Part shown: positions 1,154-26,611 of the stretch, one piece after another | Position numbering within the stretch: the first letter of the stretch is position 1 | Layout of the letters: every line of letters starts with the position of its first letter | Origin: Chrysomallon squamiferum | Lineage: Eukaryota; Animalia; Mollusca | DNA: 64,000 nt | Reading direction: 5' to 3' | Assembly: GCA_012295275.1 (NCBI GenBank) | Contig: CM022677.1 | Location: 1,860,001 to 1,924,000, forward strand | Translations under genes and position numbers: made by a program | Notes under the pieces: generated by a model | Told to the model about the DNA's origin: nothing | Databases searched by the model: none | The model's input: the letters and a program-made list of their open reading frames with translations, nothing else

Positions 1154-1417
1154 ATGGCCACCTCAACTGCAGTCTCAGGTTGGCAGACAGGGAAGAATCT
1201 GAAAGAATGCCTTGAACACGTTTTTCTTACAAGAACTCACACGGACGTCAGATTTTTAGTTGGGGAACATAAAACTGCTGTGGATGCTCATCAGTTAATT
1301 CTGATCATTCGAAGCGAAGTTTTCAGTCAGATGTTGACTGGAGAACTTCGCGAAAAATCAGATATTGTGATACCGGATGTGAAGGCAGACATTTTCGCAG
1401 AGTTTTTAAAGTATGTT

Positions 1418-1485
<68 letters not shown>

Positions 1486-2703
1486 CATGGAAACACACGT
1501 ACGAACACAGTGAGGAAGAGAGACATACAGACAGACAGAACGTTGATAACAATACATTTTTTGTTAGTAATCTAATTATTTTCTAAATAATTAATCTCAC
1601 ATAGTTATCTCACATTTTAAAGTCTTACTCTACTTCTTTCACACAGATATCTTTACACGGATGACGTCGTCCTAACAGGCGACAACGTCACCGATCTGCT
1701 GTATCTATCGAGGAAGTACATCGTCACGACACTGGAAGAACAGTGCGTCAACTATTTGGAGTCGTCGTTGTCGTCACGGAATGCGTGCGTCGTGCTGGAA
1801 CAAGCTCACCTGTTTGATGAACATGATCTAAGGAAAAAAACTCTGGACTTCATTTTGGAAAATGGCGACGAAGTTCTGAAGTCAGATGAAGTCACCGATC
1901 TTTGTCACGAATGTCTGGTTGAGATCGTACGATCAGACGAACTGACAGCAGACGAGAAAAATGTTTTTGAAGCCGCTGTGAAGTGGGCTGACAGCGCGTG
2001 CAGGAAGCAAGGAAGACAGACGAATGAAAAAAACATGCGCGATGCACTGGGAGAGGTCGTGAAGCACGTGCGTTATCCATTACTCGATCAGACGTATTTT
2101 GTAAAACACGTGAAACCCACTCACATACTCACTGACACAGAAGAAAACAAGATTTTGAGACACCTGGTGAGCAGTGATGAAAATGTTTCACCTTTCAACT
2201 CAAACATGAGAACTGCAATGATGAAAACACAGACAATAAACAGGTTTGGTTCGAATGGTCGTCGTATAAGTCCTTACTGGCTATGTACTGGTAAAGAAGA
2301 TGACGCCATTACTTTCTCTGTCAACAAAAACGCTTTACTTCGCGGATTTCAGTTGTACGGTTACTGTGAACCACGAAACTACGACGTCAGCGCCTTCGTC
2401 ACTGACACAAGAACAGACGAAATACTGGACGGGTCTACGCTGACACAGAGATATGAACACGTGTCTGCCGTGTATGACGTCGTGTTCAGACGTCCAGTGA
2501 AGATTACTAAAGACACTGAGTACAGCTTGTTTGTTAATGTTAAGGGAGAACGCACATGGTTTGGAGGTAGAGGTGAATCAAAAATTGTTGTAGACTCTTT
2601 TGTTTGTAGATTTTCTAAGTCACACAAATCTAAACACAGTGACAGAAAACTTAGTACAGATGTGACATACGGACAAATACCTGCTTTGTTATTTTTAGTG
2701 TAA
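1154..2703 (+). CDS. BTB/POZ-BACK-PHR protein (BTBD1/2/3/6-like Cullin-3 adaptor), copy A; exons 1154-1410 and 1647-2703 (437 aa)
   Basis: Exon 1 has BTB motifs (TDVRFLVG..VDAHQLILIIRSEVFSQML). GT donor at 1411 and CAG acceptor ending at 1646 join in frame to give FLK-YLYTDDV. BACK-like segment EKNVFEAAVKWA..VRYPLL is followed by PHR-like W..G..DAITFSV..LRGFQLYG and terminal TYGQIPALLF. An acceptor (ttctag, 1141-1146) upstream of the ATG implies further upstream exons. Confidence 0.92.
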
Positions 2704-3229
2704 AAACAACATCGTTCAAACACTGTCACTTTTAGTCATCACTGTCCTAAGATTTGTATGTATTTATTTATTTGTTTACTTATTGATTTATTGATTTGTT
2801 TATGTTTTTCTGATGACGTCAGACAGCGGTGATGACGTCATAGACAGTTCCTTTGATTTGAAATTTTATAATGGACTGATTTGTGTCAAACAGATACATC
2901 TCATTGCTTTATTATTTATTTATTTATTTATGTATTTATTTATTTATTTAAGTATTTCTAATGTTTGTTGTTTGTATATAAAACGTAATATTATTACCTA
3001 TTTCTTGCTTGATTTGTACTTTTTTATTTCGGTTTAAAATGTATATAAAATAAAATGTAGATAAATTGTATATGTACTTACTTACTGTTGGACATGAAAT
3101 ACAGGAACTGTTATTTGATTTATTTATCAATTTTCTTTCATTCAGATTTATATTAAATATGTTAGTAAATTAGATTATGTTTCGAATTTGTTTGTTTCAT
3201 ATCGTATTTTTATGTATAAAAACAAAATA

Positions 3230-3287
<58 letters not shown>

Positions 3288-3569
3288 TCTCTCTTTATTC
3301 TCTCTCTCTGACTAGAATGTAAAATAAAGATAAAAATATACTTTATAAAAGAGTTTTGAAAATGGGGAGAGATTTCCCAAGCTGACTATAATCTATTATG
3401 AACAAAACTTTGAAAAATCTGGATCTCTCTACTTCGGATATCTGGTGTAAATTCAAGAATAAAATACGATCAATTCAATGCCAACAATTAGGATACTGTA
3501 TGACAAAATACGATCAATTTAATGCCAACAATGACAAATAAGCCCTATGACTAATGGGAGGTATATCAT

Positions 3570-3878
3570 CACTGGTTTTCAACTTTTTATCATACCTTGA
3601 CCCTTATGAGGAACTCAGTATGAGCGAAGACCCCTTTAAAATGTTTGATTCAATAATATGTAGTGTTACCATATTTTCATCAACCAAAGTCAGTACAAAA
3701 GGAATCTATATTCACTATGACGGGTCCCAAACCAATCTACACGTTTTTATTTATTCCTCCTTCCAAGTCAAGTTGAAAAAAACTAAAACATACCATTGCT
3801 CAAGAACGATCTCGCGACCCCCAGAAAAAAGTCTGGCGACCCCTCTGGAGGTCATGACACTTAGGTTGAAAACCTATG
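3570..3878. mobile_element. hAT-type MITE, inverted copy of the element at 49985-50292
   Basis: Terminal inverted repeats cactggttttcaac..gttgaaaacctatg and internal gcgacccc motifs. It is the reverse complement of 49985-50292. No TSD is retained here. Confidence 0.85.
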
Positions 3879-4249
3879 CCCTTTACACAGCTAAATGAAC
3901 AAGAACATTATTAGTCTGTTAACACCTAAGTGAATTCACTCATTTAGAGTAAGTGTCAAAAGCAGAGGTCTATATAAATATGTATGACGCACATATGCTT
4001 TCTTTTATTGAATTCATCGCAAAGCGACCTAAAAAACGGCAAAGTATCGAACTTTCAAATGCCACGCTATTGTCACAAACATAAAATTAAACATCAAATT
4101 ACATACATCGATGTTTTGTTTCTAATACAAAAGCGCTGTTAGCAAAGTACTGTATACAGACCTTGTTAAAGCCATTATGTCATTTATCGTGTGAATCTCA
4201 ATTAAATTAATTTGTATACATGTTTAGAAGAACTGTGTTTATTGTCAAA

Positions 4250-4760
4250 CTCTAATCACAACAGTAAACAATACATTTGACAGAAATAACAAAAGTCCAC
4301 TGATTGATCGCAGAATGTTTTCTGGAGATCGTTGGACAAAATGGAGGCAAACTGCGCACAAGTCTCCCAGTGGTCAGTTCACAGCGTTTGTTCCGCTTGC
4401 CTCGGTAGTACTTCCCAGAGATGTCTCTTCTTTGTACAATGTGGATTGGGTGTACTGACAGGTACAGATACACCTCCCCATACGATAACCCGTCCACGGA
4501 TAAATCTACCATTAATCGAATGTTTGGGTTTGCGTGCCTTTCATTTCGACCGTGCATGTAAGGCAGTTCGAGAGTGAGCAGGCAACATACGAAAAGATGC
4601 CACGTGTCCAGCGACAGATGCACCAGTTCTTATGCTCACCACACCATTCCCGTCTGTGTGAGGATTGTCAAGACAGGTACCACCCTACTGAACAAATGAG
4701 TGATGCGTGTTCAGTTATATGGAAAGTGTTTAAGTGTGTTGATAAACAGACCTGAACCTT
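4250..4760 (-). mobile_element. Degenerate Tc1/mariner transposase remnant
   Basis: Frameshifted minus-strand peptides EWCGEHKNW..RW..GIFS, RVIVWGGVS (4467-4489), IHIVQ..ISGKYYR and GRLVRSLP resemble Tc1 motifs (W..VLFSDE, VMVWGGIS, L+RSMP) and occur in the expected order. Confidence 0.7.
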
Positions 4761-5436
4761 TTTTGCCTGGACGTGCAAAATAACCAGCTGAGCTACAGCA
4801 GCCGGGCCCTGTTGTGTCCTCTTATGTAACATCTAAGAATCATACGTAACTAGTTTGGAAACTTTGGAAAACTGTTCGTTGTGAAGACCGTTCTACTTTT
4901 AGCGTTCTGTAGATTATGTCTGAGCAACAGTTACCCATTACCAGCCTCCGAGGTTCGAGATAAACACCGAATACATTTTCGATCAAACGCTCTGTCAAAG
5001 AAAGTAGTGTTTTTAACAGGCTACGAAACCGTTAATTTTTACTTCTGTCTGAAGAAAACACAACCACGGTAAAAATCTCCAGTTTACGATACTCCAATGG
5101 CAACGATCCCGAAAACATCACAGCAGTTTTAAACGAGAAGAAAATGGGATCCCTTGTCACCATATCACCAGAAACAGCTGGAGATAACTAGAATGTACCG
5201 AGATGAAAGGAACTGTAATTTTACCTATGAGGTCAATGGTTTGATTTTTAAACTGAAGATACCCAGTATCAGCATCTATGTAACCTTCTGGTATTCCTTT
5301 CAACATGAATGAAATTTCAGTATATAACTTTTTAAAACCTTTCGCTTCTGTTAAACTGCCAGAAAAGAAATGTAAAAATATAAAAATAATAATATTTATT
5401 AGTTCTTTATTACTTCTCGATTTTTATTATTACTCC

Positions 5437-5498
<62 letters not shown>

Positions 5499-5854
5499 GT
5501 TCCTAACAGTCGATCTGCTTTATATATCTCTGTCTGTTTATTTATTTGTTTTCATTTTCTAAGGTAAATTAGAATCATAAGCTAGCAGTCGACGTTTTTT
5601 CACTTCGGGTCAAATCAGTGCGTTTGTGATTTTTATCTTACATATATCTTGACAGCGATTTACTTTACTGAACCTAAGAATTCATATTAAATCAAATATG
5701 CACACACACACACACAACATAATTTTTCTTTCTTGCCTGTATGCAAGCATGTATATGTGTGTATATGTATGAGTGAGCATGTGATTTTAATATGAGTTCG
5801 CAAACACATACACACATGTTTGTATGTATTGCTGCATATATGTATGTGTGTATA

Positions 5855-5896
<42 letters not shown>

Positions 5897-6709
5897 GTAG
5901 TCAAGCAGCCGTTATCTCTTCCCCCTCTTCCAGATTCTAAAATTATTACAGACTGCGAAAACATCATGAACATAGTTGAATGTTACTGTTTATAAGAAAA
6001 AGTAATATTCGGGTCTGTATGGCTTATGCGACAACAGAAAATAATCAGAATGTCTAATAGTAAAATTTCCCTGTTGTAACTAATTTTCTGACAGTTCAGT
6101 GATTTAATAAGAGTACAGACCTGATATCAAATATTTCTCTCTCCAACAATCTGCTGACCGCGTGACTGACCCAGATAAAATACTTCTTAAAATAAATCTT
6201 TAACCTTTGTTGTATTCAAGATAACACTAGGTACAGAGGAAACACTTGGTTTAATGGTTTAATGTAATTTAAAATATTTGAAATAAAATTCATTTAATAA
6301 TAATAATAATAATAATTCCTTTATTATCAAATTTTTCTATGTTTGGTATTGTTAATGTCCTGTGTTTCATCTATTTAAATTTCTTTGCTTATGAATAACT
6401 GGATTCTGTACTGAAAGTTGTTCAGCTTGTTATTGAAACACGTGTTAGCGATAAATAATAAAAGCACTGAATCACGTTAACTACCTAACTAAACTGAAAA
6501 CACGTTATCTGTTTTCATAGACTCCACACAGGCAAAATGTATAAACAAGTTAAGAAAAAAGACCATAATAAAAAAATAATTAAAAAATTTCTTCTCGATG
6601 TTCATTTCTCAAAGTTTGCTCCTACCTGCAAGAAAAACACACAAAAACAATAATATTTAAGTAGGTCAAATGACTAAAAAGTAAAATCTATAAAATAACC
6701 TTAATAATA

Positions 6710-7495
6710 GTTTTAGGGTCAGGGTTAGAAATAGACTTTGCATAAGAATTAAAGTTAGGCACTTCTTTAACGTCAGAGTTAGGGCTTAATGTTTGGGTTA
6801 GGGTTCGAGCTCGGGTTATGTAAATTTTAGTGTGAGGTTATGATAATGTGGAAATAATTTTAGGCTCACGATTAGAAGTAACGTTAAGAATCAAGGATCG
6901 GGACTTGAGTAAGATTAGCTTTAGAAGTTCGGCTGTGGTTAGCTTTAGGATGAGGGTTAGGATTAGGATTAGGGTTAGTGTTAGTGTTAGGATTATTCAA
7001 AGTTTATTATGAGTCTTACGATAATCTGCAAAACAGTTTTATGATCAGAGTTAGTATTAGTGTTAGGGATAGAGTCGGGGTTAGGCTTAGGGTTAGGATT
7101 AAGGTTAGGGTTAGGGTTAATTTAGGGTTAGGGTAAGGGTTAAGGTGATGTTTATTTAAAGATTATTATCAGTGTTACGATAATATGCAAAATAATGTTA
7201 GGGTCACCATTAGGAGGAGCGTTAATGTAAAAATCCACGTTGTGGACTTAGTTAGGATTAGGTTTAGAATTTGAGCTAGGGTTAGGTTAGGTTAGGTTAG
7301 GGTTAAGATTAGGGTTATTGTTTGGGTTAGACTTAGTATTACGGTAGTGTGGAAAATAGTTTTAGGTCAGAGTTACAGATAGGGCTCAATGTTAGGGATA
7401 TTGTAAATATTACTATGAATGTTATAATAATAATAAAAATAATTTTAGCATCATCATTAGAAGTAGCCTTTGCGTAAGAATTAAGGTTTGGGGGT
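6710..7495 (+). repeat. Degenerate TTAGGG-like (interstitial telomere-like) tract
   Basis: Many ggttagggttag/ttaggattagg variants, for example at 7078-7145 and 7277-7330. Confidence 0.75.
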
Positions 7496-8454
7496 ACTGG
7501 CATTAAAATTACCTCACGTCATTAGTTTTACACTATCAACAAATTCTACCATGTATAAACAAAATTCTAAGACGAAGATGTTGTAAAAATGAAACTAACT
7601 TCGTCCTTCAGCAAGTATCATATTATTATTTTAGATGTCATAATATGCGACAGTTTTGGCAGCCGGAAAATAACGATGATCCCAAATAAATCTTTCTTTG
7701 AAAAATTATTTAAATTGAGATTGATAAAAACGAATTATCAGATATTTTCTTTTTAGGTGCAGCGTCACGTAATATACCAGACAAACAGAAAGATCCATTT
7801 GCTGTGTTCATCAACCTGTAATTAATTCTCACATTTTCCTGTAAAAACGCTTCTGATAAAATCACCACCACTGTTTATGTGACAAATTTATTATCGAGTG
7901 ATTTTTAACTCGTTACAGTCATGCAGAAACAGTGGTAAGATTTGTGGCCTCTTCCTTATGAAACCGGAAAGTATAATCAGAAATATGGAGGACTTTCTAT
8001 AGCAATATTAAATAACAAATTATGTTCAGAGTTATTAAAGTAATTAATAAAATTAGTTATTTTCGTTGATTTTAACTTTCGTTGTATAAACTGCTCTTCT
8101 GATAACTTGAGAATAAATGACCAAAACGTGACTTTTCTTCTTTTTTAAAAACTTTTTCAGTATATTTTAACCTTGAGATATCCCGTTTATTTTGTAATAG
8201 GAGCACTGTTCATAAACGTGAATTGAGACTGAGAAAAAATTACACTACTGCTAGTAACTAAAGGATAATTACTGTTGTAACTTCATTATAAATTATATTA
8301 TAAATATAATTATTTTATTATTATTTATAACTGATACACACTTGCAGAAACATAATCAAAGATACTTCTGATATTGTGATTATTTTTGTAACATTCGTGA
8401 AATAAACATAACGATAAAGATACAAGCATCAGTAGAACTAAGTTAAAACAGTGG

Positions 8455-8890
8455 GGCAGAGAGTGGATAGAAAGTGGACAGAGAGTGGACAGAGATTGGA
8501 TAGAGAGTGGATGGAGAGTGAATAGAGAGTGGATAGATAGTGGATAGAGAGTGAATAGAGAGTGAATAGAGAGTGAATAGAGATTGGACAGAGAGTGTAT
8601 AGAGAGTGGATAGAGAGTGAATAGAGAGTGGATAGATAGTGGATAGAGAGTGAATAGAGAGTGAATAGAGAGTGAATAGAGATTGGATAGAGAGTGTATA
8701 GAGAGTGGATAGAGAGTGAATAGAGAGTGGATAGAGAGTGGACAGAGAGTGAATAGAGAGTGTATAGAGAGTGGATAGAGAGTGGATAGAGAGTGAATAG
8801 AGAGTGGATAGAGAGTAAATAGAGTGGATAGAGATTGTAAAGAGAGTGAATAGACAGTGGATAGAGAGTGGACAGAGATTGGATAGAGAA
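8455..8890. repeat. 12-bp minisatellite (GAGTGGATAGAG)n and variants
   Basis: Direct reading of the sequence. It generates the spurious SIHSLSTLY ORFs. Confidence 0.95.
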
Positions 8891-9493
8891 TGGGTTCTCG
8901 TTACGATTGCGGACACAAGGGAGTGTCCAACATATTGGATCGCAACGAGTCGGTTCCGATGTTTCGTGCACTTTATCCGCTCCTTGTTGTTTCCGGCACT
9001 TTTCTAGCTCGTTGAAGGTCTCCTAGTCACCACCGGGTCCGTGTTGGCTGCGTCCTGTTTGTTTGTTTGTCCTCTTCTCGGCTGCTGCTGATATTTCTTT
9101 GATCTGTTTTGGTCTTTTTATTGATTGAAAGAATGCTGTGAACACCTGTAACTAAAAAGAATAACATGAGTGTAGTTAACTTATTTACATTTTATTTTAT
9201 TTTATTTTATTTTTCTATTCTAATTAAAAAGATGTTATAAATATTTGCAGCTAAGAATAAGAACGTGAACTTATTTACATTTATTATGTAAAAGAGAAAA
9301 GAAGAAACAAAAAAACCCAACAAAACCGTGTTAGTGTGGTCTGAAAGTAGTGCACGTATAGTTTTGTTTTTAAATATTAATTTGATTGGCTATTCAAATT
9401 GATCCGTCAGTCAGCGGTTCCATCCATAGATCCATCGGCTGTTCAACCGATCAATCTGTAGGTCAATAAATTCATATAACTTTTGTTGTTTTT

Positions 9494-9526
<33 letters not shown>

Positions 9527-9897
9527 GTTTAAAGTTTGTGTTTTGTGTTCAGAATGTATGTTGTTACTGCAGCGAGGACTAACTGTCTGTCTTTCATGTT
9601 TGGTGCCAGGATGTGTTGCAGCGTGAACTCGATTTTTAATGTTCCACAGCTGCAGTTGGGTGATGTGGTGATGTTATGTTTGTATCTGATTGCATTTAAG
9701 TTAGTTGAGTAACCAGTTATGGCTTTGGTGAGATTGGTGTTGTGTAGTTTGTTGGTGAGTGTGATTTTGGGTGTTTTCGTGAGTGGTTTGATGTTCAAGA
9801 GCCATTTGTTTTTTGTGTTGTTCCATTCGTTTTGCCACTGTTTGTCGTAATGTTTGGCAGCGATGAAGACGATTTCATTTATTCTGTAGTGTATACA
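8890..9897 (-). mobile_element. Third, more diverged copy of the RNase H-containing composite repeat
   Basis: 8890-9050 matches the GC-rich module of 14275-14410 and 19750-19890. 9335-9465 matches 13740-13875 inverted. 9529-9895 matches the post-RNase H ORF segment (INEIV..AAKHYDKQWQNEW..CSCG). Confidence 0.85.
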
Positions 9898-10008
9898 CAA
9901 CACGGTCACTCCAAAAAAAAAAAATAATAATAACTAAATAAAAAAAAAAAAAAAAAAAATGAATAAATAAATAAAGAAATAAAGAAATAAATATTAAGAA
10001 AAAATAAT

Positions 10009-10047
<39 letters not shown>

Positions 10048-11439
10048 TGACGAGAGAAAAGGAAAAAAAAACACATCCTTACACGGCTTATCTCCCTCTA
10101 ATAATTCTCGTTTCGTGTAGTCGTCGAAATTACCAGAGAAAAATAATCTCTAAATTCGATGCAAACTTGCCGCCGCCGCCGCCGCCACGTTTGTGTGCTT
10201 GATTCCCAAAACCATTCTATATGGGTAAAACACAACAACAAACACACAGTCATATTCTCGGACAGTCCGTGATCTGATCTCAATACAATCCGGATACAAT
10301 AAGGTAACAACAACAACAAAATCGAAATGAAAATACATTCACCATCGAGCCGTCGTGATCTCGCAATTCAATTTTCCGTTGGAAGATACCTTTTTCAAAC
10401 CGCACGCACGCACGCACGCAAACACACACACACACAGACACAGACACACAGACACAGACACACACACTCAGACACACAGACAGACACACACACAGACACA
10501 CACGCACGCACACATACAGAAACATACACACACACGCAGGCGCGAGAGGAAATAATATACGTACACACACAATCAGATATACACAACACGGTCACTGCAA
10601 AAAAAAAAATAATAATAAATAAATAAAGAAAAAAATAAAAAAATTAAAAAAAAATAAAGAAAGAAATAAAGAAAGAAATATTAGGAAAAATTATATTTAA
10701 AAAAAAAAAAAATAGATATATATATATATATATATATGTGACGAGAGAAAAGGAAAAAAGACATCGGGTTTCATCCGTCCACTGTCACAGCCTTCATTTC
10801 CTTACACGGCTTATCTCCCTCTAATAATTCTCGTTTCGTGTAGTCGTCGAAATTACCAGAGAAAAATAATCTCTAAATTCGATACAAAGTTGCCGCCGCC
10901 GCCACGTTTGTGTGCTTGATTCCAAAAATCATTCTATATGGATTTAGTTTGAACTTGGTGCTGCCAATTTTTTTTTTCTCAACAGGGATCAATACGTTTA
11001 ATAAATGAGTTAGTTTTGCTGCAGTGAACAAAAAAACGCATGCAAGACTGAGTCTACGGCACCGACGCACACTAGGCACACTGTCTATGGAGTGGACTCG
11101 ATCTTCCATTCGTAAAGATGGTTTCGGACCAACTGCAACAACAACAACAACAACAACGTGTCTGATCATTTTATAAATTAAATCGTAATCGTCGTTATTT
11201 TCAATTAAGACAGAATTTAATCATTTTTAATGTTCGAAGAGAACCTGGTCAATTGTAAATGGGTAGGTTATTCGTCAATTGATGAGGCAACTGCCGAATT
11301 GTCCGGCAGTGACTGAAAATTTGAAAGAAAAAGAAAGAAAGAAAAAAAGAAAAAAAAAAAACAAGAAAAAAAAAGACGAACCGACGTCTATTTATCTTCG
11401 TTCTTCTTATTGCGTGCGCTGAATAACGACAACGATAAC

Positions 11440-12736: not shown

Positions 12737-13080
12737 AGAAAAAAAAAACAAATAAAAAAATAAAAGAAAAGAATAAATAAACAAACAAATAAATAAATAA
12801 ATAAATACAAAAATAAATTAAATTAAATTAAATTTAAAAAAATAAAATGAAAACATGAGAAAAAGAAATAGTAAAAAATAAAATAATAAAACAAAATAAA
12901 ATAAATAAAATTAAACAAAAATAATAATAATAATAATAAAATTAATAATAAATAAATAAATAAATTAAATAAGTAAATAAATAAATGAATGTATAAATAA
13001 AATAAAAATTGTTAATAATAATATTAATAATAATAATAATAATAATAATAACAACAACAATAACAATAACAATAACAATA

Positions 13081-14540
13081 ACAACAACTCCGAGCTGATC
13101 AAACCCGAAGGTATTTCCCTTCCTCCCGTACGCCGAGCCGAGTGCCTGGAAAGCGTGGCGAACAGGTAAGGAAATAACAACAATAAAGTTCCGTGATCTC
13201 AATACAATCCGGAAGTTCCAGCAGACCAGACCTGCTCAGCAAAATACAACAACTACACGAGGACATACAACACAACAAGAAAGAACTAACCATGGAGTGG
13301 CTCCCAGCACACGTCAGCATCATCGGTAACGAACTTGCCGACCACTACGCCAAAGAGTCACTCAGCATTAAAGACGAAGACATCTGCACAGACATACATT
13401 ACGGAATAAACGAAATTGTCTCCATCGCTGCCAAACATTACGACAAACAATGGCAAAACGAATGCAACAACACCAAAAACAGATGGCACTTAAACATCAA
13501 ACCATTCGCCAAAACACCCAAAATCACACTCGCCAACAAACTACACAACAACAATCTCACCAAAGCCAGAATTGGTTACTCAACCAATCTAAACGCAATT
13601 CGATACAAACATAACATCACCACATCACCCAACTTCAGTTGTGGACTCTCAGAAACCATGAAACACTACTTGTTTCACTGTCCAAATTTTGCCAAGGAAA
13701 GATAAGCACTACGCAACAAACAACAATTATATAAATCTATTGACTTGCGGATTGATTGGTTGAATAGCTGATGGATCTACTGATGGATCGGCTGATTCAC
13801 GGATGAATTTGAATGGCCAATTAAATTAATAATTAAAAAATGATAAACGTACTATACGAACCCACTTTCAGACACTACTAACCCGGTTATGGTGTCTTAT
13901 TTCAATTTAATACTTTTATAATTTAATTAATTGGATTTATTATTCATTTATTTATTTTTATTTTCTTATTTTTTTATTTTTATTTTTTGCTCACTTATTT
14001 ATTTATTATTATTATTATTATTTTTTTTTTTTTCATATTCTTAGTCCTAGCTTCAGGATATATAACATCTTTTAAATTAAAATAAAATGTAAATCAGTTA
14101 ACTACATTTATATTCTTATTTGTTTATAATACCTTTTAAAACAATAAAAAGACCACTGGTAAAAAAAAAAAAAAAAAAATAGAAAACAGGTTTGGACTAC
14201 GTGGACCAGAAGGAAGCAGCCAAAAAGAAACAACAACAGCAGCGAAGAGCAGAACAAGCAGGACGGCAAACAACACGGACCCGGTGATGGCTGAGAGATT
14301 GTGCCGGAGACCACAGGGGGCGAATTGCGGCTGCGAAACACCGGTACCGACTCGTCACGATCCGATATGCTGGACACTACCTTGTGTCCTACAATCGTGG
14401 CGAGAACCAATTCTTTTCCCTACCCAAAACTCTTTTCCGCGACGGACACACCCGCTGACCTGTCAGAAAGCGTGCCCGTCGCAGACGTGCTTCACAACAG
14501 CTTGCTCTGATTAGCACGTTAATTTTTTCCCTATTCCTAT
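13081..14540 (+). mobile_element. Non-LTR-retroelement-derived repeat (RNase H C-terminal part, cysteine motif, GC-rich 3' module); left arm of inverted pair
   Basis: ORF 13193-13705 has WLPAHVSIIGNELADHYAK, typical of non-LTR RNase H, and SCGLSETMKHYLFHCP, the C-terminal Cys/His motif of LINE ORF2. It ends in ttaattttttccctattcctattcc, a simple-repeat tail. Confidence 0.85.
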
Positions 14541-15116
14541 TCCTAGTCACAACATCCAATAAAACATGCATCCTACAAGCTATTAAAAATATAATCATTT
14601 CAAATAGCACCAGTTATTTGTCGTTGCACATGACTAGGTAGGAAACAATTTACGGCGATTGTAAATAAACTCAACGCGATTTCGGTCTGTAGAAAACCTA
14701 AATTAACGGCGATTTCGCTAAGCACGTGCTATAATGTACACGCTGAAAATAAGAACATTCAAGAAAAACATATAGCAAACAAGTTATTAAAAACAGAAAT
14801 ATAATCATATTAAAAGCGACACACCTTTCTAGTTGTACATACGGCAATTTCGGTAGGGTAGAACACGTATTATAATGTACTCGCTGAAAATAAGAACATT
14901 CGAAAAGGAAAAACATTCAACCAAAAAGTTATTAAAAATATAAAAAACATAGAAATATAATCATTTTCAACAACCCCAAATCTTTCTAGCACATTTTAAA
15001 ATTAAAACGCAAGCACACATGTATACACAATATTTTATTAAAAATGATATTTGAAATATTCGACAAATTGACCTTTCTAACTGTACATAAAATCTACTAC
15101 AATTCAAAATTAAATA

Positions 15117-17938
15117 TTATATAGTTAGATCATCCTCAATTAGATCTGCAGCCAGAGCATGAATGCTCATACAGTGGTCTACTGCATCTGCATCCGAGTC
15201 ATTTGCTCCCCAGTAGGCTACAACATATTTCTTACCTTTGCATACATCTTCTCTATCTTTCCATTGTATATTGCTCTTTCTCCATCATCAATCCACGTAT
15301 GGCAAATCATGCTACCCACTGAATTCCCTGATAAAAGTTCACTTACCTTTTCCAATTTATATTCTGAGAGATCCGAGAATTCAACAGAGAGTCTGTCGAT
15401 GTCTACACTTTTCAATCTTCTCTCCAATCTGTTCCTCTCTGTGGTCTCCTTTGCCTGCAGCTTCTGTACTTGTCTCCTGTTTTGTTCTTCTCTCAGATTC
15501 TTCTGCTTGGTACGCCTGTCCTGTCTGTGTTGTTGGCCCATGTGGATCGCCGTTTTAAAAATACGATCTCCTGTCTCCGTGTCTAGGGCATCAAGATAAT
15601 CCACTGTCCTGTTTTTGATGGCCCTCATTTTACATGAGATGTAGCAGAGAGTAGCATTTGGGGAAATCTTCTGTAAGGAACTAAACATCCCCATGATCTC
15701 TTCTGCATCAATGGTATGACATCTGGCCGACCTTGTCTCATCCCTCAGTCTCTCAGTGAGATCGCAGTGGAAGTATATGTTGTACTGCCGTTCAAGGACG
15801 ACAACTGTTTCATACAAACAACTCTTCATCATGTTCGCAAACAGGGAGATGTCTGTAGGTGCTGCTTGGAGCATCTCCAGAGTTGGTTCTTGCAAAATTA
15901 TATGTCCCAAAAAATCTATCTTGCATGACAGAGCGTCTTCAGGGGACTGTGCACTGACTTTCAGTTTGGCAATAACTTGCTTGACAAGCTCAATGCACTG
16001 AATGTGGTTTACTTGTTCTGGGGCAACTGCTGATTGGTAGAACTTGGTCATCCAAGTCCACTAAGCAGTTTCCCAGTAAGTCCAAGCACCTGCATTTCCA
16101 CTTGTGCAGGAACAGACACAAAGTCTGCTAGGATGCTATGCCGTAAACCACCACAAGATACACCCTTCTGCAGAAAACTCGTGAATAAATTATGGAAGCG
16201 AGTGAAAACGCCACATATGTGAAAAAGGATATGTAGGCGGTTACCTCTGTATCTGGGTAAGATCCCACGTGCCAAGTTTTCGTGGTCCAGAAAAATGATG
16301 AAACCACGAGGATCACCCTTGCTATTCATAAACCTCATTTTGTTCATCTGCACGACTATGTTTCCAGCCAAACAGTCTGTCCCTTTAAGTTTCTTTTCTA
16401 TTCTGATTTCTGCTTCACATACCTTTAGAGCAGCAGGAGTTTTTGTTGCAATTGAGTCCAATGGATGCAAATGGCAATTTAATTCATTGAGTGTTTTGCT
16501 CCACGTTTCATTCAGAAGCTGAAATCCAAGGGCATTGCAAATATTATAAATTATTTTTGTTCTTGCAGTTTGATAATCATCCTCATGAAAGTTTGAGTAT
16601 GTTCTAGTAAGTTCTTAATGGAGTCAGATGTGTGCTCATGGTAATCATCAGCAGTCCCACCAGCCAGTTCATCAACTGCAGCAACATAACAGTTCTCTGG
16701 TGTGGCAATGTGGACACTTTCACATGTGTGCCTCCTGTGTTGTGGCATCAAAACCAAGTGTGCAGCTTTTATTCTCAATTACAGCTTCAGCTGCCTGTAA
16801 TTCCGTTATTACTCCAAGTTCCCTTGTCATTGCCTCAGTAGTGGTTCTGTGTGGGATGTCCTTCAGTGGAACACCACACCGTCAAAAACAATTCTGAAGA
16901 AGAACAGGGATATTGCTGGCTGGCACCTGATTAACAATGGCATCAAATACCATCATTCTTAGGTCTGCAGAATAGACCTTTCCATTATATTTTGTCAATT
17001 TTAGTTTACTAACTGACTCATGAAGCTTTTCTTCAAGCAGGATTTTATCTCTCTGGAGATCAATTATCTCCTTTTGTTTTATTTCAAGTTTTATTTTAAG
17101 TTCAGAAATTTTGTTTTTGGCAGAGAGCAGAGTTTCTGATTCATTTTTATTCTTTTTTTCGCTGTGGTACTTTTTCATTTTTCGTGGGGTTTTTTTAAAG
17201 TTCGATCACATTTGAAACGGTACTTTGTTCTTGAAATTTTGCTATCTGTTCCTCTTTCCGTCTGATTGTTTGGTTTAAGAATTTTACATATCCCTTTTTC
17301 TTTTGCTGTACTCTCACATCTCGGATTGCAATGTGTGTAGTCCTTTGAAGCTGTAGCTGTTTTAGTCTCATATTTGTTAAGGAGTTATTTAATAACTTGC
17401 ATGATTGGCAGTTTTTTGTTTGTCTGGTTTTCCTGAGTGGTTTTTTCAATATTGGAATGGCAGGTTCCTCTGAATCTTCTCCCCAGAGTGAACTGCTATC
17501 CAATAGATTGTGTGGTTCTGGGGAAGCAGTAAAGTAGTGTGGGTTGCAACTCGGTCCAGGTTGGGGCTCATCTAGTTTTCCGGGTACATTCTCAAGATTA
17601 CAGCTTACCGTCAATAAAAAAAATTCTGAACAAAAACACATAAATTTGGTAAATTGTACAGCATAAGCCAGATTTCGAAACTTATCGAACTGGTACACAA
17701 CTTTCTTCACTTCAGCAGAAAGTCTCAACACATGGTTAGGAGTTAGTGAAAAATGACTACATAATTCACTAACTGTTGTTGTTCGACTGTTACCACAGCT
17801 AGTGTAAATATAAAGCACGTGTCCTTTCAAAAACTCATCTGTTGCAGGAACTGTGGAACACTTTTCTTGCAGATGCTGTCTACCTAAGCTCGGTTGGTTA
17901 CATCTAATTAGGCACTGTCTCTTGTTATTCAAAGGCAT
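15117..17938 (-). pseudogene. Degenerate DDE transposase with CxxH motif (hAT/P/MULE-like fold)
   Basis: ORFs 17195-18046, 16882-17178, 16551-16778, 16048-16470 and 15218-16051 join across stops and frameshifts. Motifs read are TLGFDATTQE (candidate first D, ~16735-16762), VDELAGGTADDY, LNELNCHLHPLD (CxxH), YRGNRLHILF, HTIDAEEIMGMFS..PNATL (candidate E) and terminal ALAADLIEDDLTI*. Confidence 0.75.
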
Positions 17939-18379
17939 CTTTTGGTTATTCACTGAAAAAAACAAGAAAAGAGCTGAGAAGACAACTGAAATAAGTTTTA
18001 AAAAGTTGAAATTATGAAAGACAATATTACCAAAGTGAAACATCAACTGTGGGTCAAACCAAAAACTGAGAAAAAAAAAATATATATATATGAAAAGAAA
18101 TGCAAAATTTGAATGACCAGTACAAATTAAATCCAGACAGAATACAATAGCAAGTGCTTATTTGATTTGGTGTTTAGAAATTATAATTGTTTGGTCAATT
18201 TTATGATTTTAAAATCCTAAAACATCTTGAGATTTGAGACAATTATGGATGAAAATACCAATATATTGTTAGGAACATATTTGTCCATCATTCTTATGTA
18301 AGATAATTTAAGAAGAATAAGTCAGCATAATCCATTCTCAAACGTAAGTCCTTACACAGGAAGTTTGGTCTGCCATGAC

Positions 18380-18990
18380 ACTTTCACTTCGGCGATCTAA
18401 CGTCGAAATAACCATGCTTGACGAGGTAAAGATTAGAGTTACTAGTTAGCATGCTTGCAGCTGCTTGACAAAATTTCAAAGACAATTAGATAAAAATCTA
18501 ATTATTATGTCCAGCTACTTTTCATTCGTCTCATGTAACCGGTGTTAGTGACTGTAGCATGTTGAACATTCGTAATTTTGAAGAAAAAAACAGAAGCTCA
18601 AACTGGCGATATAATGCCAACAAACCATATTTCACGAGGTTAAAAATTACAATTAAGAGCCTCGAAGCTGCTTTATAAAATTTCAAAGACAATAAGATAA
18701 TAAAACAAATTATTATATCCAGCTTCTTTTCATTCGTGTCACATAACCGGTTTTAGTTATTGTAGCATGTTGAAAATTCCGTAAAAGTTTCACGATGTCG
18801 ATCGAACACCAAAATTACACATAGACCATATTTCACGAGGCGATCATAACAATTGAATGCGTCCAAGCATTTTGATAAAATTTTAAAAACAATAAGATAA
18901 AAAACCAAAGTTAATGTCCACTTACCTTTCGTTTGTGTCACGTAGCTGGTTGTAGTGATTCAAGCGTGTTGAAAATTCGTAATTTTCTAA
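18380..18990. repeat. Three ~200-bp imperfect tandem units upstream of the transposase (subterminal-type repeats)
   Basis: acaat(t/a)agataa..ccagct..ttttcattcgt..taaccgg..tagt..gtagcatgttgaa recurs at ~18482, ~18689 and ~18889. Confidence 0.8.
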
Positions 18991-19206
18991 AAGGCAGCGT
19001 AGACACAGAAAAACTCAACGGAATCAAAATATTCGAAATCGTGAGCACTTATCAATATCCCGTCTGAGTTTGTATACAGAAATCCCAAGTAAAGAATACA
19101 ACACGAGCCAAAGAAAAGCTAACAAACGGCGCCCCCCCCCCCCTCATGCAAAACACGTTTTCAGTGGAACAGCTAATTGGTAAGAAACGACAGCCGCTAA
19201 TCGCAA

Positions 19207-19313
19207 GTATCTGCACATACTAAATATACAGTTACATAGTTAAATCTTACGATTCCACGAGTATCTGCACATACTAAATACATAGTCACATAGTTAAATC
19301 TTACGATTCCACG
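19207..19313. repeat. Two-copy ~54-bp tandem duplication
   Basis: gtatctgcacatactaaata..atagttaaatcttacgattccacga occurs twice. Confidence 0.9.
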
Positions 19314-19614
19314 ATACGTTATCAAAGCAAATAGCGTTGACAAATAATACAAAACTAATTCAGCCCAGTTGGTTACTTGATCTTTCTAAATAATCTTTTA
19401 ATTATTAAAATACGTTATCTTTGTTTTTATAAACGTAAGTACCACAGAATAACACTATGAAAAATTCAACAGTAATAGATTTAGCTATCTTCAATCATTC
19501 AAGATGTATGTTACATATACAAAACATTAAACCATAATTACCATTGTCTGCGTTTTCCTTTGTCTTGTGCCGACAAAGACTCTCAAGAATGGCACTGATC
19601 AAAGAGATCTCGTT

Positions 19615-20750
19615 CAATGGAATGGAATGGAAAAAAATTAACGTGCTAATCAGAGCAAGCTGTTCTGAAGGTCGTCTGCGACGGGCACGCTTTCTGACAG
19701 GTCAGCGGGCGTGTCCGTCGCAGAAAAGAGTTTTGGGTATGGAAAAGAATTGGTTCTCGCCACGATTGCAGGACACAAGGGAGTGTCCAGCATATCGGAT
19801 CGTGACGAGTCGGTACCGATGTTTCGCAGCCGCAATTCGCCCCCTGTGGTCTCCGGCACAATCTCTCAGCCATCACCGGGTCCGTGTTGTTTGCCGTCCT
19901 GGTTGTTCTGCTCTTGGCTGCTGTTGTTGTTTCGTTTTCTGTTTAAAAAAAAAAAAAAGTTTAAAGTTTGTGTTTTGTGTTGAGAATGTAATTTGTTACT
20001 GCAGCGAGGACTAACTGTCTGTCTTTTATGTTTGGTGCCAGGGTGTGTGAACTTAATTTTTAGTTCCTCCAGTGTAGTGCTTTTCTTTCATTGGCAAAAT
20101 TTGGACAGTGAAACAAGTAGTGTTTCATGGTTTCTGAGAGTCCACAACTGAAGTTGGGTGATGTGGTGATGTTATGTTTGTATCGAATTGCGTTTAGATT
20201 GGTTGAGTAACCAATTCTGGCTTTGGTGAGATTGTTGTTGTGTAGTTTGTTGGCGAGTGTGATTTTGGGTGTTTTGGCGAATGGTTTGATGTTTAAGTGC
20301 CATTTGTTTTTGGTGTTGTTCCATTCGTTTTGCCATTGTTTGTCGTAATGTTTGGCAGCGATGGAGACAATTTCGTTTATTCCGTAATGTATGTCTGTGC
20401 AGATGTCTTCGTCTTTAATGCTGAGTGACTCTTTGGCGTAGTTGTCGGCAAGTTCGTTACCGATGATGCCGACGTGTGCTGGGAGCCACTCCATGGTTAG
20501 TTCTTTCTTGTTGTGCTGTATGTCCTCGTGTAGTTCTTGTATTTTGCTGAGCAGGTCTGGTCTGCTGGAACTTCCGGATTGTATTGAGATCACGGAACTT
20601 TATTGTTGTTATTTCCTTACCTGTTTGCCCCGCTCAGCACGCACTCGGCTCGGCGTACGGGAGGAAGGGAAATACTTTCAGGTTTGATCAGTCCGGAGTT
20701 GTTGTTGTTGTTATTGTTGTTGTTGTTATTGTTATTATTGTTATTATTGT
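19615..20750 (-). mobile_element. Non-LTR-derived RNase H repeat; right arm, inverted relative to 13081-14540
   Basis: ORF 20060-20593 is nearly identical to 13193-13705. 19630-19925 is the reverse complement of ~14235-14530. An (AATGG)n tail is at 19616-19630. Confidence 0.9.
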
Positions 20751-20766
20751 AGCAATACGTAACTAC

Positions 20767-20966
20767 NNNNNNNNNNNNNNNNNNNNNNNNNNNNNNNNNN
20801 NNNNNNNNNNNNNNNNNNNNNNNNNNNNNNNNNNNNNNNNNNNNNNNNNNNNNNNNNNNNNNNNNNNNNNNNNNNNNNNNNNNNNNNNNNNNNNNNNNNN
20901 NNNNNNNNNNNNNNNNNNNNNNNNNNNNNNNNNNNNNNNNNNNNNNNNNNNNNNNNNNNNNNNNNN
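20767..20966. other. Assembly gap (200 N)
   Basis: Run of N. Confidence 1.
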
Positions 20967-21290
20967 CTGCTTTTCAACATGAGATCTAAGATCAGCTAAA
21001 TGTCAACAGAACTTTTGTAACATCATGTTTTGTGACAGTGAAAGTATCATTTATTACTTTTATTTTCTCAAAGAAAAAGTGCTTCAGATTCGAGATCAGA
21101 ACGACATTTGACTTCTTCACACGATTAACTGTTCCTTCCCATGACACCTGGTGGAAACCTACCTGAGTTCAATTTATGTTAATGTATGCTAATTTATTCC
21201 TGCCTTAGCAAAATGGTAACACCATGACATACAAAAGCCTTCTGAGACCTTATATTAATTTTACAATTTTGAAACATTATTATTATTATT

Positions 21291-21328
<38 letters not shown>

Positions 21329-22556
21329 TATTATTATTATTATTATTGTTGTTGTTGTTGTTGTTGTTGTTGTTATTATTTTAAATTATCTTGTGTGCTA
21401 TTATATAAGCAGTCGGACACCCACTGAAATACTCGTCTCTGTTAAACACAACTATTCTTGTATAAACGCTACAACTGTTAAAAATACGACTTTCTCAACT
21501 GACCTGTGGTTCAGTCAGGTAGAATGAACAGAAAAACTGAGCAGTGTAAAAATACAAGTTTTAACTCTCTCTGAATACGCGCCACAGCTTCTATTCTTAA
21601 CATGAATGATTTATTTACATAACACTGCGTTTTCTTCACTCACTACACATAAAATGAAGGTAGTCGTCGTTGTATTCTGTTTTTGATATAAATTAAAAAC
21701 GTTTCTCTCCCACGACACGTTGTGTCTGCGTGTGCAATAAATTATAATATTCGACATGAATCGCTTTGATATTGTAAAACATTTCTTAACACTTGTATTA
21801 TGACAAATATCAATATTGAAACCCATAGCTATTTTATTGACAGGAGAAAACTATTCTCACTGCTCTACAGTTTAGAAGTAAACAATATTTTAGAAATACC
21901 TTCTCAAAGACAGTAAAAAAAAAGGATTTTCAATTCATAAGTTTTCTAGCCATGTTGAACTAGAAAGCAAACCTGCCTACAACATTCACTAATAAATAAT
22001 AATTCATGTACTTTTATCACAGAGACAATTATTTATTTATTTACTTACACACATTTTACTTATTTACTTGTTTGTTTATTTGTTTTCATTTTATTATTAT
22101 TTTTTCACTCCAGTATATTTTTAAAACTAATTATCTTATTAAGTACTGATATGTAGTTCTTTCAACTCTTCTCGGTAAATCTAAAGTTACCAAGAAAGAA
22201 TGGTGTGTAAAATCGTGGTATGTTGTGTACTTTTTGTAGTAAGATATGAAAAACTGTTTAGATGATAAAACAATGTAACAAAGTTTAAATTTATTTTACT
22301 ACGACACAATAAAATTTATTTGGATGGAATACAAGAATAATACGAAACAAATTTTATACTTTGATTTAATTGATTTCTTTTTTTTTTTTTTTTCAATCAT
22401 TTGATTTCTTATTCTTTCACTCAAGTTTCATACATCCGTTCCTACAATCAGATTTATGAAAATAATTTATTTTACTTATATAACTTATTATATATATATG
22501 TATTGTTACATTTTATTGTTATTGTCATAACTATTGTTATTATTATTAATAATAAT

Positions 22557-22592
<36 letters not shown>

Positions 22593-23887
22593 TATTTTCT
22601 GTCGAAACTGATTGGGTACAGGGTTATGGTTGGATTATGTTAAGAAATGTGTTAGGATAGTATTAAGTCTAGGGTGATAGTGGGGGAGGTGTTAGGATTA
22701 GGGTTTTGGCTATGGACAGACAGTGAGACGAAATTAATCATAAACTTAATCACAGGCTTAGGTGCACAGATGTAGAGCTAACATTCAGATAAGTAATATC
22801 AGAAACGTTCTTGTATTTAGAGTTAATTCGGGGATAGTATTAGTATTGGTTTAAGGTTAAATATAAAGATAAAATTAGTAATTCCTATAAATATTTTCAT
22901 GTATGAATAATATCCTGTTTGAAAACCATCCTGAATTAACACTACCCTCTACAACTCACCAATCTCTGAAATATGTGGAATTTGATGCTGAAAGAGAAAC
23001 CACTTTGAAACACTCATTAAACTAACTCAACACCCTATGAACCCTCTTTTGGCTTCATCTTACAACCCTCTTTATGTCTGTCATGACCTGTTTTCTACAC
23101 CATTTCTCCCACCTGTAGCGTTCTCTTTATCTATATTGTCAATACACATTTTAACATCGAACCAGACTGCTTCAAAAGCATTACAATAAGAGTGTTCTAA
23201 AAGCCTTTTTATGAATAATGGAACTTATCCTTTTTCTGCTTTTATATCGTTGTGAATAACACCCGAGTATGCTTTTGTGTTTCTCATACAGCAGTGACAC
23301 GCTATTTGTATCTGACCTACATTACAAACAAACGTCACGTGTTAGTTTAACTTGATATACTGGTCATGCAAGCATCGTCAAAGAAATAAAATATGTACAC
23401 GTATATTTAGTGCACTGTAAAATTTATTTCATGTTCTTATTGTTGTTGTTGCTCTTGTTTCTATTATTATTATTATTATTATACAGATTTTATAACTTAC
23501 CTATAAACAATGCAATCTAATAGTACTTAATCTAATCAATTGTTGTAATCAATTTTAAAAACGATTTATGTAAGATGAGTATACATATATCTCGTAGCAC
23601 GATTTCTTTATTTTATTCTGACATTGAAACCTAACAACGTGACACTTGATCTGTGTCGTGTGGAGGTCTGGTGCAGCCCGGGGCCAACTCCTTGATTGTA
23701 ATTCCCAAAGATTCAAGTACAAGGCCTAGCACTGAGAAATAGTATGAGAAAGGAAGATATTTTGAATATGTAAACACAGATGAAACATAAATACTTTATT
23801 CGATTTAAATATAAATCTGGATGCCCGGTGCCAGACCCCCTTCGGCCCTCACCTCTGCTCGCCACTGCACTTGATAACGTGTAAAAT

Positions 23888-24825
23888 ATCTGACGTCACT
23901 CGCGTGTTTATCAGTGGAGGATTTTAAGAACCAAAAGTACACAAAGCAGAAATAAAACAAGTCGGCCATATTGAAAGTCTATGATATTTTTATTTTATTA
24001 TGTTTTAACTATTCCAGTGTTCTTAATTTATTACTAGTAGTAGTAGTAGTAATATCTTTAATACTAGTACTACTATTTCATTTCGTTTTATTTTAATTTA
24101 GTTTGTATTCATTTATTCTTAGATCGGTGATAGCAGTGATCTACAGCAGTTGACTCGATAGAGAGAAAATAGTCGCTTAAATAAATTCTCCATCAGCAAG
24201 TTTAAATTAGAAGGTATTTTAAATTGTTTTCTATTTCAAAAATATCGCATCCTGTTTTTTTTCTTTATTAATATTTCTTGTTCTTTAGTGTTTGTTTTTA
24301 GATCTGTCACTGGCGGATAATTTTGCTGACTTTTCGAGAAGTAAATTGTTATAAATGACCACAAGTACATTGCGATATGAAAATCGTTTCTCCCACAGTG
24401 AAATATTTCTTACCTGACTGACCACTCACCTCTGTTTATAATAATAATTATAATTATAATAATTCTTTGTGTCTTCGTCATCATCATAGTAATCATTACT
24501 ATAACCACAAGGTATTTCTTTTTTATCCTTTATCTATCCGATGTTTTTCTTTCTTTCCTTATTTTTTATTTATTTATTTATTTATTTATTTTTAGATCTC
24601 TGATCTCAGTGTTCAGTAGTAGAGGCGTTAAACAGAAAGTAGTCGGTTTCTAAAAATTATTTTGATTAATTTTTTTTTTTAAAAATTGTTTTTTGTTTTG
24701 GAATTTTTATATGTAAAGGTGTTTGTTTCGGTTTTGGAATATGTCCATCTTACAGGTCTTATGTACACGGAAATTTTATTTGTAAGTTTATATTTAGCAT
24801 GATTATTATAGTTTATTTGATTTTG

Positions 24826-24895
<70 letters not shown>

Positions 24896-25179
24896 CCTCT
24901 GTTTCTAGTGAAAACATGGCCACCTCAACTGCAGTCTCAGGTTGGCAGACAGGGAAGAATCTGGTAGAATGCCTTGAACACGTTTTTCTTACAAGAACTC
25001 ACACGGACGTCAGATTTTTAGTTGGGGAACATAAAACTGCTGTCCATGCTCATCAGTTAATTCTGATCATTCGAAGCGAAGTTTTCAGTCAGATGTTGAC
25101 TGGAGAACTTCGCGAAAAATCAGATATTGTGATACCGGATGTGAAGGGAGACATTTTCGCAGAGTTTTTAAAGTATGTT

Positions 25180-25241
<62 letters not shown>

Positions 25242-26611
25242 CATGGAAACACACGTACGAACACAGTGAGGAAGAGAGACATACAGACAGACAGAAACGT
25301 TGATAACAATACATTTTTTGTTAGTAATCTAATTATTTTCTAAATAATTAATCTCACATAATTATCTCACATTTTAAAGTCTTACTCTACTTCTTTTACA
25401 CAGATATCTTTACACGGATGACGTCGTCCTAACAGGCGACAACGTCACCGATCTGCTGTATCTATCGAGGAAGTACATCGTCACGACACTGGAAGAACAG
25501 TGCGTCAACTATTTGGAGTCGTCGTTGTCGTCACGGAATGCGTGCGTCGTGCTGGAACAAGCTCACCTGTTTGATGAACATGATCTAAGGAAAAAAACTC
25601 TGGACTTCATTTTGGAAAATGGCGACGAAGTTCTGAAGTCAGATGAAGTCACCGATCTTTGTCACGAATGTCTGGTTGAGATCGTACGATCAGACGAACT
25701 GACAGCAGACGAGAAAAATGTTTTTGAAGCCGCCGTGAAGTGGGCTGACAGCGCGTGCAGGAAGCAAGGAAGACAGACGAATGAAAAAAACATGCGCGAT
25801 GCACTGGGAGAGGTCGTGAAGCACGTGCGTTATCCATTACTCGATCAGACGTATTTTGTAAAACACGTGACACCCACTCACATACTCACTGAGGCTGAAG
25901 GATTCAAGATTTTGAGACACCTGGTGAGCAGTGATGAAGATGTTTCACCTTTTAACTCAAACATGAGAACTGCAATGATTCCTAACACACAGATTACAAT
26001 AAACAGGTTTGGTTCGTATGGTTCTGCTATATTAGGTGATTACTGGCCATGTTTTGGTAAAGAAGATGATTCCATTACTTTCTCTGTCAACAAAAACGCT
26101 TTACTTCGCGGATTTCAGTTGTACGGTTACTTTGAACCACAAAACTACGACGTCAGCGCCTTCGTCACTGACACAAGAACAGACGAAATACTGGACGGGT
26201 CTACACTGAGACAGAGATATGAACACGTCGTGTCTGTCGTGTATGACGTCGTGTTCAGACGTCCAGTGAAGATTACTAAAGACACTGAGTACAGCTTGTT
26301 TGTTAATGTTAAGGGAGACTACTCATTGTGTGGATTTAAAGGTAAATCAGAAATTGTTGTAGACTCTTTTGTTTGTAGATTTTCTGAGTCACACAAATCT
26401 AAACACAGTGACAGACAACTTCGTACATGTGTGACATACGGACAAATACCTGCTTTGTTATTTTTAGTGTAAAAACAACATCGTTCAAACACTGTCACTT
26501 TTTGTCATCACTGGCCTAATATTTGTATTTATTTATTTATTTGTTTACTTATTGATTTATTGATTTGTTTATGTTTTTCTGATGACGTCAGACAGCGGTG
26601 ATGACGTCATA
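23888..26611 (+). repeat. Direct duplication of window positions 1-~2841 (BTB gene plus flanks)
   Basis: atctgacgtcactcgcgtgttt occurs at 1 and 23888. Similarity runs through the gene to ..gatgacgtcata (2841/26611), with a divergent stretch in the upstream region (~810-1080 vs ~24615-24830). Confidence 0.95.
24916..26472 (+). CDS. BTB/POZ-BACK-PHR protein, copy B; exons 24916-25172 and 25404-26472 (441 aa)
   Basis: Same exon/intron structure as copy A (GT at 25173, CAG ending 25403). The spliced frame is open throughout and the BTB, BACK and PHR motifs are conserved. Confidence 0.92.

Follow-up and report, generated by a model that had tools for sequence, protein, structure and literature searches.

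Neighbouring BTB-BACK-PHR genes of Chrysomallon squamiferum: probable positive selection on three PHR loops beside a constrained BACK segment

How do two neighbouring genes come to share most of their coding sequence while differing in patches of one C-terminal domain, and what might such patches recognise? We consider this question in the vent snail Chrysomallon squamiferum, in a 64,000-nucleotide stretch of contig CM022677.1 (assembly GCA_012295275.1, positions 1,860,001 to 1,924,000 of the forward strand; hereafter the window, with positions counted from its first letter). The window holds two intact two-exon BTB-BACK-PHR genes on its forward strand, A (437 amino acids) and B (441 amino acids), both with open reading frames. 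An original prediction, made from the letters alone, had proposed that the pair belongs to a diversifying Cullin-3 (Cul3) receptor system with a near-invariant scaffold and variable PHR loops. We favour, at a probability of about 0.55, the reading that A and B are sister genes of recent origin, from a large family of likely Cul3 substrate adaptors that has undergone repeated duplication, with loops rewritten for new targets.

Divergence along the two genes

The two genes sit in a duplicated block whose copies were delimited by blastn self-comparison: copy A at 1–2869 (1–192 and 255–2869 forming the match) and copy B at 23888–26633, the window edge cutting the 5′ end of A and thereby setting the start of B. 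The block spans at least 1.15 kb 5′ of the ATG to about 165 nt beyond the stop codon. Homology stops near 2869 and 26633; beyond these points the downstream sequences of A and B have no extended match to each other. An assembly gap of 200 N lies between the copies (20767–20966), and tblastn found no third copy or fragment in the 64-kb window. Gene A consists of coding exon 1 (1154–1410), which encodes the N-terminal part of BTB, an intron containing a CA microsatellite (1411–1646), and exon 2 (1647–2703), which encodes the end of BTB, BACK, a linker, PHR and the stop codon, as delimited by reading frame, Pfam, structural model and structure match. Gene B follows the same plan, with coding exon 1 at 24916–25172 and exon 2 at 25404–26472 (both from the reading frame, exon 2 also from Pfam domains) around an intron at 25173–25403; both introns have GT-AG ends.

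The proposed BTB-BACK-PHR architecture is supported by Pfam matches and by structure. BTB (PF00651) scores 38.8 bits in exon 1 and 21.3 and 21.6 bits in exon 2 (cut-off 20.5) and matches the BTBD6 BTB structure 2vkp, and BACK (PF07707; 59.5 and 59.3 bits) and PHR (PF08005; 81 and 76 bits) likewise exceed their Pfam cut-offs. An AlphaFold2 model of exon 2, built with 98 sequences (predicted local distance difference test score 94.6, predicted template modelling score 0.79), has its best structure match in the BTBD2 PHR domain 3no8 (Z 22.9, root-mean-square deviation 1.5, 147 residues aligned), followed by the MYCBP2 PHR domain and then the KLHL11 BACK domain 4ap2 (Z 13.9, root-mean-square deviation 3.1, 169 aligned). 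At the sequence level, L65-R66-E67 of exon 1 aligns with L-A-E of BTBD6, a position we take to be the hydrophobic-x-Glu motif through which BTB contacts Cul3. The BTB-BACK part would probably dimerise and bind Cul3.

Recounting the differences between A and B reproduced the figures of the original prediction, which had given exon 1 three residue differences (three replacements and one silent codon), the intron a few bases and a change in CA-repeat length (two substitutions, a 1-nt indel and three CA units), and the first 460 nt or so of exon 2 a single synonymous change (codons 87–241, one silent and no replacement). From codon 242 to the end we count 33 substitutions by DNA-guided and 35 by protein-guided alignment, against some 33 predicted, and four 3-nt indels account for the four extra residues of B. 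All five variable patches exist as quoted, and the proximal 3′ flank indeed returns to near-identity (7 of 147 sites differ) before homology ends.

In the block's non-coding DNA, 21 of 1090 aligned positions differ between the copies (0.019). Against this background, the Pfam-defined PHR domain carries replacement differences (Nd) at 32 of 357 sites (0.090) and silent differences (Sd) at 2 of 111 (0.018), a ratio of replacement to silent divergence (dN/dS) of 5.2 in this pairwise test of A against B (Fisher P = 0.005), rising to 5.7–6.5 with transition weighting; over the whole gene it is 1.9–2.3 (P = 0.05–0.03, depending on alignment). One outcome that the original prediction had named as refuting it, silent divergence in PHR as high as replacement divergence, did not occur, and dS is at the level of the flanks. 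Since PHR dS equals non-coding divergence, the domain is not simply an older or unconverted segment, and the excess of replacements very likely reflects positive selection. For a two-sequence test the signal is strong, and it is backed by independent controls described below.

Amino-acid changes are clustered (P = 0.00015, 20,000 permutations), with 19 of the 25 variable PHR residues falling within 35 of 155 positions. These form three patches, namely loop 1 (codons 289–303, 2254–2298 in A and 26017–26064 in B; Nd 11, Sd 0), loop 2 (codons 387–398, 2548–2583 and 26317–26352; Nd 11, Sd 0) and loop 3 (codons 420–427, 2647–2670 and 26416–26439; Nd 4, Sd 0, alone not significant at P = 0.29). Together they hold Nd 26/80 and Sd 0/25 (P = 0.0003, an optimistic value because the patches were drawn on the A/B pair itself, which leaves the domain-level test unaffected), while PHR outside the patches is at background (proportions of replacement and silent differences, pN and pS, of 0.022 and 0.024). 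The mapping of variable residues onto a predicted PHR structure, which had been proposed as a check, bears out the claim that they sit in loops: all three patches are loops between strands in the AlphaFold2 model, with isolated beta-bridges, suggestive of contact, in or next to every one of them (model residues 211, 214, 303, 306, 334–335 and 342 in the secondary-structure string). Strand alternation in that string suggests that the three loops lie at one end of the beta-sandwich, and it is quite probable that they would form one binding face.

The conserved side of the proteins is narrower than had been supposed. Codons 87–241 (1648–2112) show replacements at 0 of 354 sites (P = 0.003 against non-coding DNA), and silent sites of BACK are not less diverged than background (P = 0.37); this segment is under purifying selection and is the only one demonstrably constrained. 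Exon 1, with replacements at 4 of 200 sites (the non-coding rate), and the pre-PHR helices and linker (codons 242–282, 2113–2235; pN 0.093, pS 0.077, no difference and dN not above dS) are indistinguishable from neutral. The idea of a near-invariant scaffold thus stands for codons 87–241 and not for exon 1, where 9 of 14 listed variants from other copies change the residue. The idea that changes are confined to the C-terminal PHR domain stands for 25 of the 33; the other eight precede the domain, in codons 242–282.

Some features around the coding sequence deserve mention. A splice acceptor directly before the ATG, together with several pyrimidine-AG and GT motifs upstream (300–1150), suggests non-coding 5′ exons, and the copies cannot be aligned to each other over about 815–1085. 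Perfect TGACGTCA palindromes, which we take to be cAMP response element-like, occur ten times in the window, six of them within the two gene blocks (0.55 expected from base composition). They lie at 4, 2814, 2833, 23891, 26583 and 26602, so that in each block one lies 1.15 kb upstream and two follow shortly after the stop codon.

Relatives, further copies and loop variation

The nearest relatives of A and B are paralogues in another vent snail, Gigantopelta aegis, which supplied 17 of 23 database protein matches, the best 12 named ones at 47–53% identity. A tree of 38 proteins places A and B with G. aegis genes (100/100) and shows species-specific clades. Thirteen canonical BTBD1/2-like and BTBD3/6-like sequences fall on their own side of a 100/100 branch (by midpoint root only). 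Sequence names confirm three canonical clusters and show that the divergent relatives include members from Haliotis, Biomphalaria and bivalves. Orthology of A and B to BTBD6 (BTBD3/6) or to BTBD1/2 was rejected, given the separate clade and different canonical loop motifs.

Comparison across these relatives suggests when the loops change. Variation in the patches exceeds that in the remainder of PHR in three G. aegis subgroups (0.55 vs 0.14, 0.38 vs 0.13 and 0.54 vs 0.22), whereas in canonical sets it is lower: 0.25 vs 0.45 in eight BTBD1/2-like sequences (P = 0.0009) and 0.21 vs 0.32 in six BTBD3/6-like sequences (P = 0.04). The canonical rows were selected by two motifs, one of them inside loop 1, and 14 of 15 matches were used, P0097 being left out as non-canonical; with the selection motifs removed, the BTBD1/2 result holds (P = 0.003), as do two G. 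aegis subgroups (P about 1e-5). Among orthologues of four Haliotis species, variation touches 0 of 35 patch, 9 of 155 BACK and 4 of 120 other PHR sites. A Biomphalaria trio and one canonical pair are nearly invariant throughout (0 of 35 patch sites), a Haliotis rufescens paralogue pair is borderline (P = 0.052), and a Logan trio, with zero variation anywhere, is uninformative on loops; 7 of the 10 further clusters considered had a single member. Loops that stay constant as long as a gene retains its identity, and that change in new copies, fit what is expected of a specificity site. Generic flexibility of loops or linker was rejected as an explanation by the canonical and abalone controls.

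Public sequencing data extend the family well beyond the window. Nine of 15 listed public runs, all of one organism, contain 0.46–0.54 of the sampled words of copy A; runs X10–X15, with shares of at most 0.14, were left out. Contigs fitting copy A at 80% or better number 2254, 1609, 210 and 269 in four runs, and hundreds to thousands of related contigs occur per run, some with deletions or frameshifts. In run X1, summed depth is 444,000 in BACK, 339 at 2263–2273 and 5,731 at 2550–2554, where few contigs still align. Exact matches in BACK comprise a contig of 234 nt in X9 and another of 154 nt in X4, both inside codons 87–241. Dividing mean depth per contig by an assumed single-copy depth gives 26–98 copies as a rough lower bound, depth not being copy number. 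In the runs, near-identical copies thus number dozens or more and show additional variants of the loops: loop 2, translated by hand, reads ERTWFGGR in A and DYSLCGFK in B, compared with DYSLCGVE in X4, GDSLCGVE in X1 and DNSLCGDE in X9. Among the PHR variants listed (40 of 265 rows), 15 of 15 change the residue. Moreover, A and B share letters that are rare in most other copies (for example at 1557, 1587 and 1694), which indicates that they are sisters rather than sequences polished to a family consensus. A loose end in RNA run X4 at 1647 carries the last 11 letters of exon 1 and so corresponds to the junction of exons 1 and 2, which points to splicing in at least one member of the family; the intron, too, is covered in X9, and that run may therefore hold DNA.

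Several details of these runs stand apart. Summed depth over exon 1 is about one-tenth or less of that over exon 2 in X1 and X3 and about one-third to one-half in RNA-labelled runs; exon 1 may be absent or divergent in many genomic copies, a choice that contig depth cannot decide. At 2134, one contig each in X1 and X3 has TTAGGG telomere-type repeats joined in front, possibly a truncated copy beside telomeric repeat. At 2010–2018 and 1354–1361, closely spaced +1 and −1 indels in other copies seem to offset each other, which would keep the frame.

That the pair is part of a larger family, as first proposed, is supported by the runs and also by published counts. 'BTBD6' copies are given as 56 in C. 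squamiferum and 35 in G. aegis, in tandem clusters, with a speculated neural role (PMC7736800). The same expansion is listed elsewhere among immune expansions, with a source table of 72 copies in G. aegis, 5 in C. squamiferum and 8–37 in six bivalves (PMC7895826). The two sources disagree for both snails (56 vs 5 and 35 vs 72), as one would expect if copies that are almost identical were collapsed or went unannotated, and the run data suggest that assembly gene counts may understate the family.

Competing explanations and the proposed role

Could the pattern arise without selection? It might be mimicked by duplicates that are relaxed or dying, by gene conversion that homogenised a BACK segment, by loops pasted from older paralogues or by polishing artefacts. 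The family contigs with deletions or frameshifts, the near-neutral evolution of exon 1 and linker, and the fact that B carries the letter of other copies at 12 of 15 listed PHR variant positions, so that tracts may be shared by conversion, all point that way. However, relaxation gives a dN/dS near 1 and not 5, silent changes would come along with any older tracts pasted in and are present at 0 of 25 sites, BACK silent divergence is not reduced, the letters shared by A and B argue against polishing, and both frames stay open through four 3-nt indels, so this account is largely refuted for the pair and we hold it improbable. Targeted hypermutation of the loops was also rejected, as a third of replacement sites changed vs none of the 25 silent ones; the 19 transitions and 26 transversions from codon 242 onward were counted against it as well. 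It is unlikely that a single locus lies behind both A and B, its two alleles having been placed next to each other in the assembly, with balancing selection acting on them, in which case the signal would still stand. The 200-N gap, a non-coding divergence of only 2% and the truncation of the 5′ match by the window edge are in keeping with alleles, whereas the end of homology about 165 nt past the stop codon, the lack of an extended match between the downstream regions and the published tandem clusters of the family (PMC7736800) speak for separate genes.

If selection is real, its driver is a separate matter, for positive selection does not name it. The adaptors might act on internal targets, be they proteins of transposons, of the germline or of other genetic conflicts, or a growing range of host regulators, a possibility to which we give perhaps one chance in a handful. 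Human BTBD1/2 C-terminal regions bind host TOP1 (PMC3002306), transposable-element families are expanded in G. aegis (PMC7895826), and the family is not enriched among genes highly expressed in the G. aegis symbiont organ. Stable host targets, however, go with fixed loops in canonical proteins and abalone orthologues, and changes at a third of replacement sites against a silent divergence of 2% need a fast-changing partner. The loops could instead change to escape pathogen proteins that hijack the adaptor, copies with altered surfaces evading capture. A precedent exists in the paramyxovirus matrix protein that co-opts CUL3-BTBD1 to degrade JAK1, yet its binding is predicted beside but outside the canonical substrate site (PMC13769053), whereas the changes here hit loops that canonical members conserve; escape alone also leaves dozens of copies unexplained, and we regard it as a slim prospect. 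Least credible is an expansion serving nervous-system regulation like true BTBD6, put forward as speculation (PMC7736800), as these genes lie outside the BTBD1/2-like and BTBD3/6-like clades (100/100) and have lost the loop motifs of those clades.

Several results weigh against the adaptor reading that we favour. The selection inference comes from a pairwise comparison of two coding sequences. At most 0.54 of the words sampled from copy A occur in any listed run, and the splice junction attests at least one family member rather than the loops of gene A. With the selection motifs removed, neither the three-paralogue G. aegis subgroup (P = 0.087) nor the BTBD3/6 set (P = 0.063) reaches significance. 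In abalones, genes of this clade have loops that stay constant from one species to the next, so an arms race does not extend to the whole clade. Plzf, a substrate of Btbd6, is bound through BTB and not PHR (10.1101/575910). Finally, only 2 BTB-labelled genes are among the 1782 highly expressed in the G. aegis symbiont organ, compared with 92 rows of this orthologous group among 21,438 genes (depletion P = 0.015; the count covers BTB-labelled genes and misses members under other labels), so that a symbiont-organ role is not favoured.

Under the favoured reading of A and B as recently duplicated adaptors, selection would have rewritten the three PHR loops so that each copy grips a different, presumably foreign, protein, which would then be sent for degradation via Cul3. 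Viral, microbial or other fast-changing non-self cytoplasmic proteins are our best guess for these targets, at odds no better than even. More tentatively still, and with rather more doubt than confidence, molluscs could hold a germline-encoded intracellular recognition repertoire of tens to hundreds of Cul3 adaptors per genome, in which three antibody-like PHR loops let copies mark different pathogen proteins and which was amplified independently in vent snails and several bivalves. An expansion published as gene counts and read as neural thereby becomes a recognition system open to test. Being fixed where a gene retains its identity and rewritten in new copies, the three loops likely mark the place where the PHR domain, itself poorly understood, binds, and pairs such as A and B, with identical BACK segments and different loops, are natural material for a loop-swap test of specificity.

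Other features of the window and known systems

Elsewhere in the window, nested inverted repeats span 13038–20748 (13038–13712 with 20074–20748 at 96% identity, and 14222–14543 with 19619–19938 at 95%). They enclose minus-strand open reading frames at 15218–18157 without a Pfam match, one of which resembles a eukaryotic protein cluster (0.94, a weak recognition), and the outer repeat contains an RNase H fragment; the element is likely a transposon. Three segments of 0.5–1.1 kb recur in the same order at 29659–35145 and 56372–60054 with 92–94% identity, and a satellite of 24-nt units occupies 62005–64000 (83 copies, 93% matches).

Among known systems, the vent-snail 'BTBD6' family is closest: it has the same architecture, its G. 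aegis paralogues are the nearest proteins and form one clade with A and B, and it lies in tandem clusters. The family and its expansion are thus already known, and the available parts of those papers give counts and a neural or general immune label; the new part is the inverted conservation and the selected three-loop site. No published report of positive selection on PHR loops was found in the partly available sources, most subscription literature lying outside the search; no paper on PHR loop structure turned up, and two mollusc immunity papers make no mention of BTB or PHR. The canonical BTB-BACK-PHR (BBP) family (BTBD1/2/3/6) shares the three domains and the PHR fold of 3no8, but its members conserve the loops, whereas the A/B family, in a separate clade, inverts this arrangement, with the framework fixed and the loops hypervariable. 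Canonical metazoan genomes have four to seven BBP copies, and PHR as the substrate module is stated there as an expectation (PMC1257465).

[quoted passage not shown] Adaptor expansions of this kind were reportedly described by Thomas in 2006, together with a defence hypothesis; in the expanded nematode families, positive selection is reported in the substrate-binding domains. Birth-death expansion is apparent in the snail family from species-specific clades, contigs with deletions or frameshifts and the published counts, and the two-sided pattern from PHR positive selection beside 0 of 354 replacements in BACK, from a pairwise comparison in which exon 1 is not clearly constrained. The expansion of the nematode families has been described (10.1101/2022.03.10.483751), and the hypothesis that they serve defence is cited as indirect (PMC1866355). 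Those families use another recognition domain in another phylum, whereas A and B use a C-terminal PHR beta-sandwich in which variation is limited to three loops. If the targets are foreign, the snail genes would give molluscs an intracellular equivalent of the repertoires that F-box and MATH-BTB proteins form in nematodes, with another domain as its basis.

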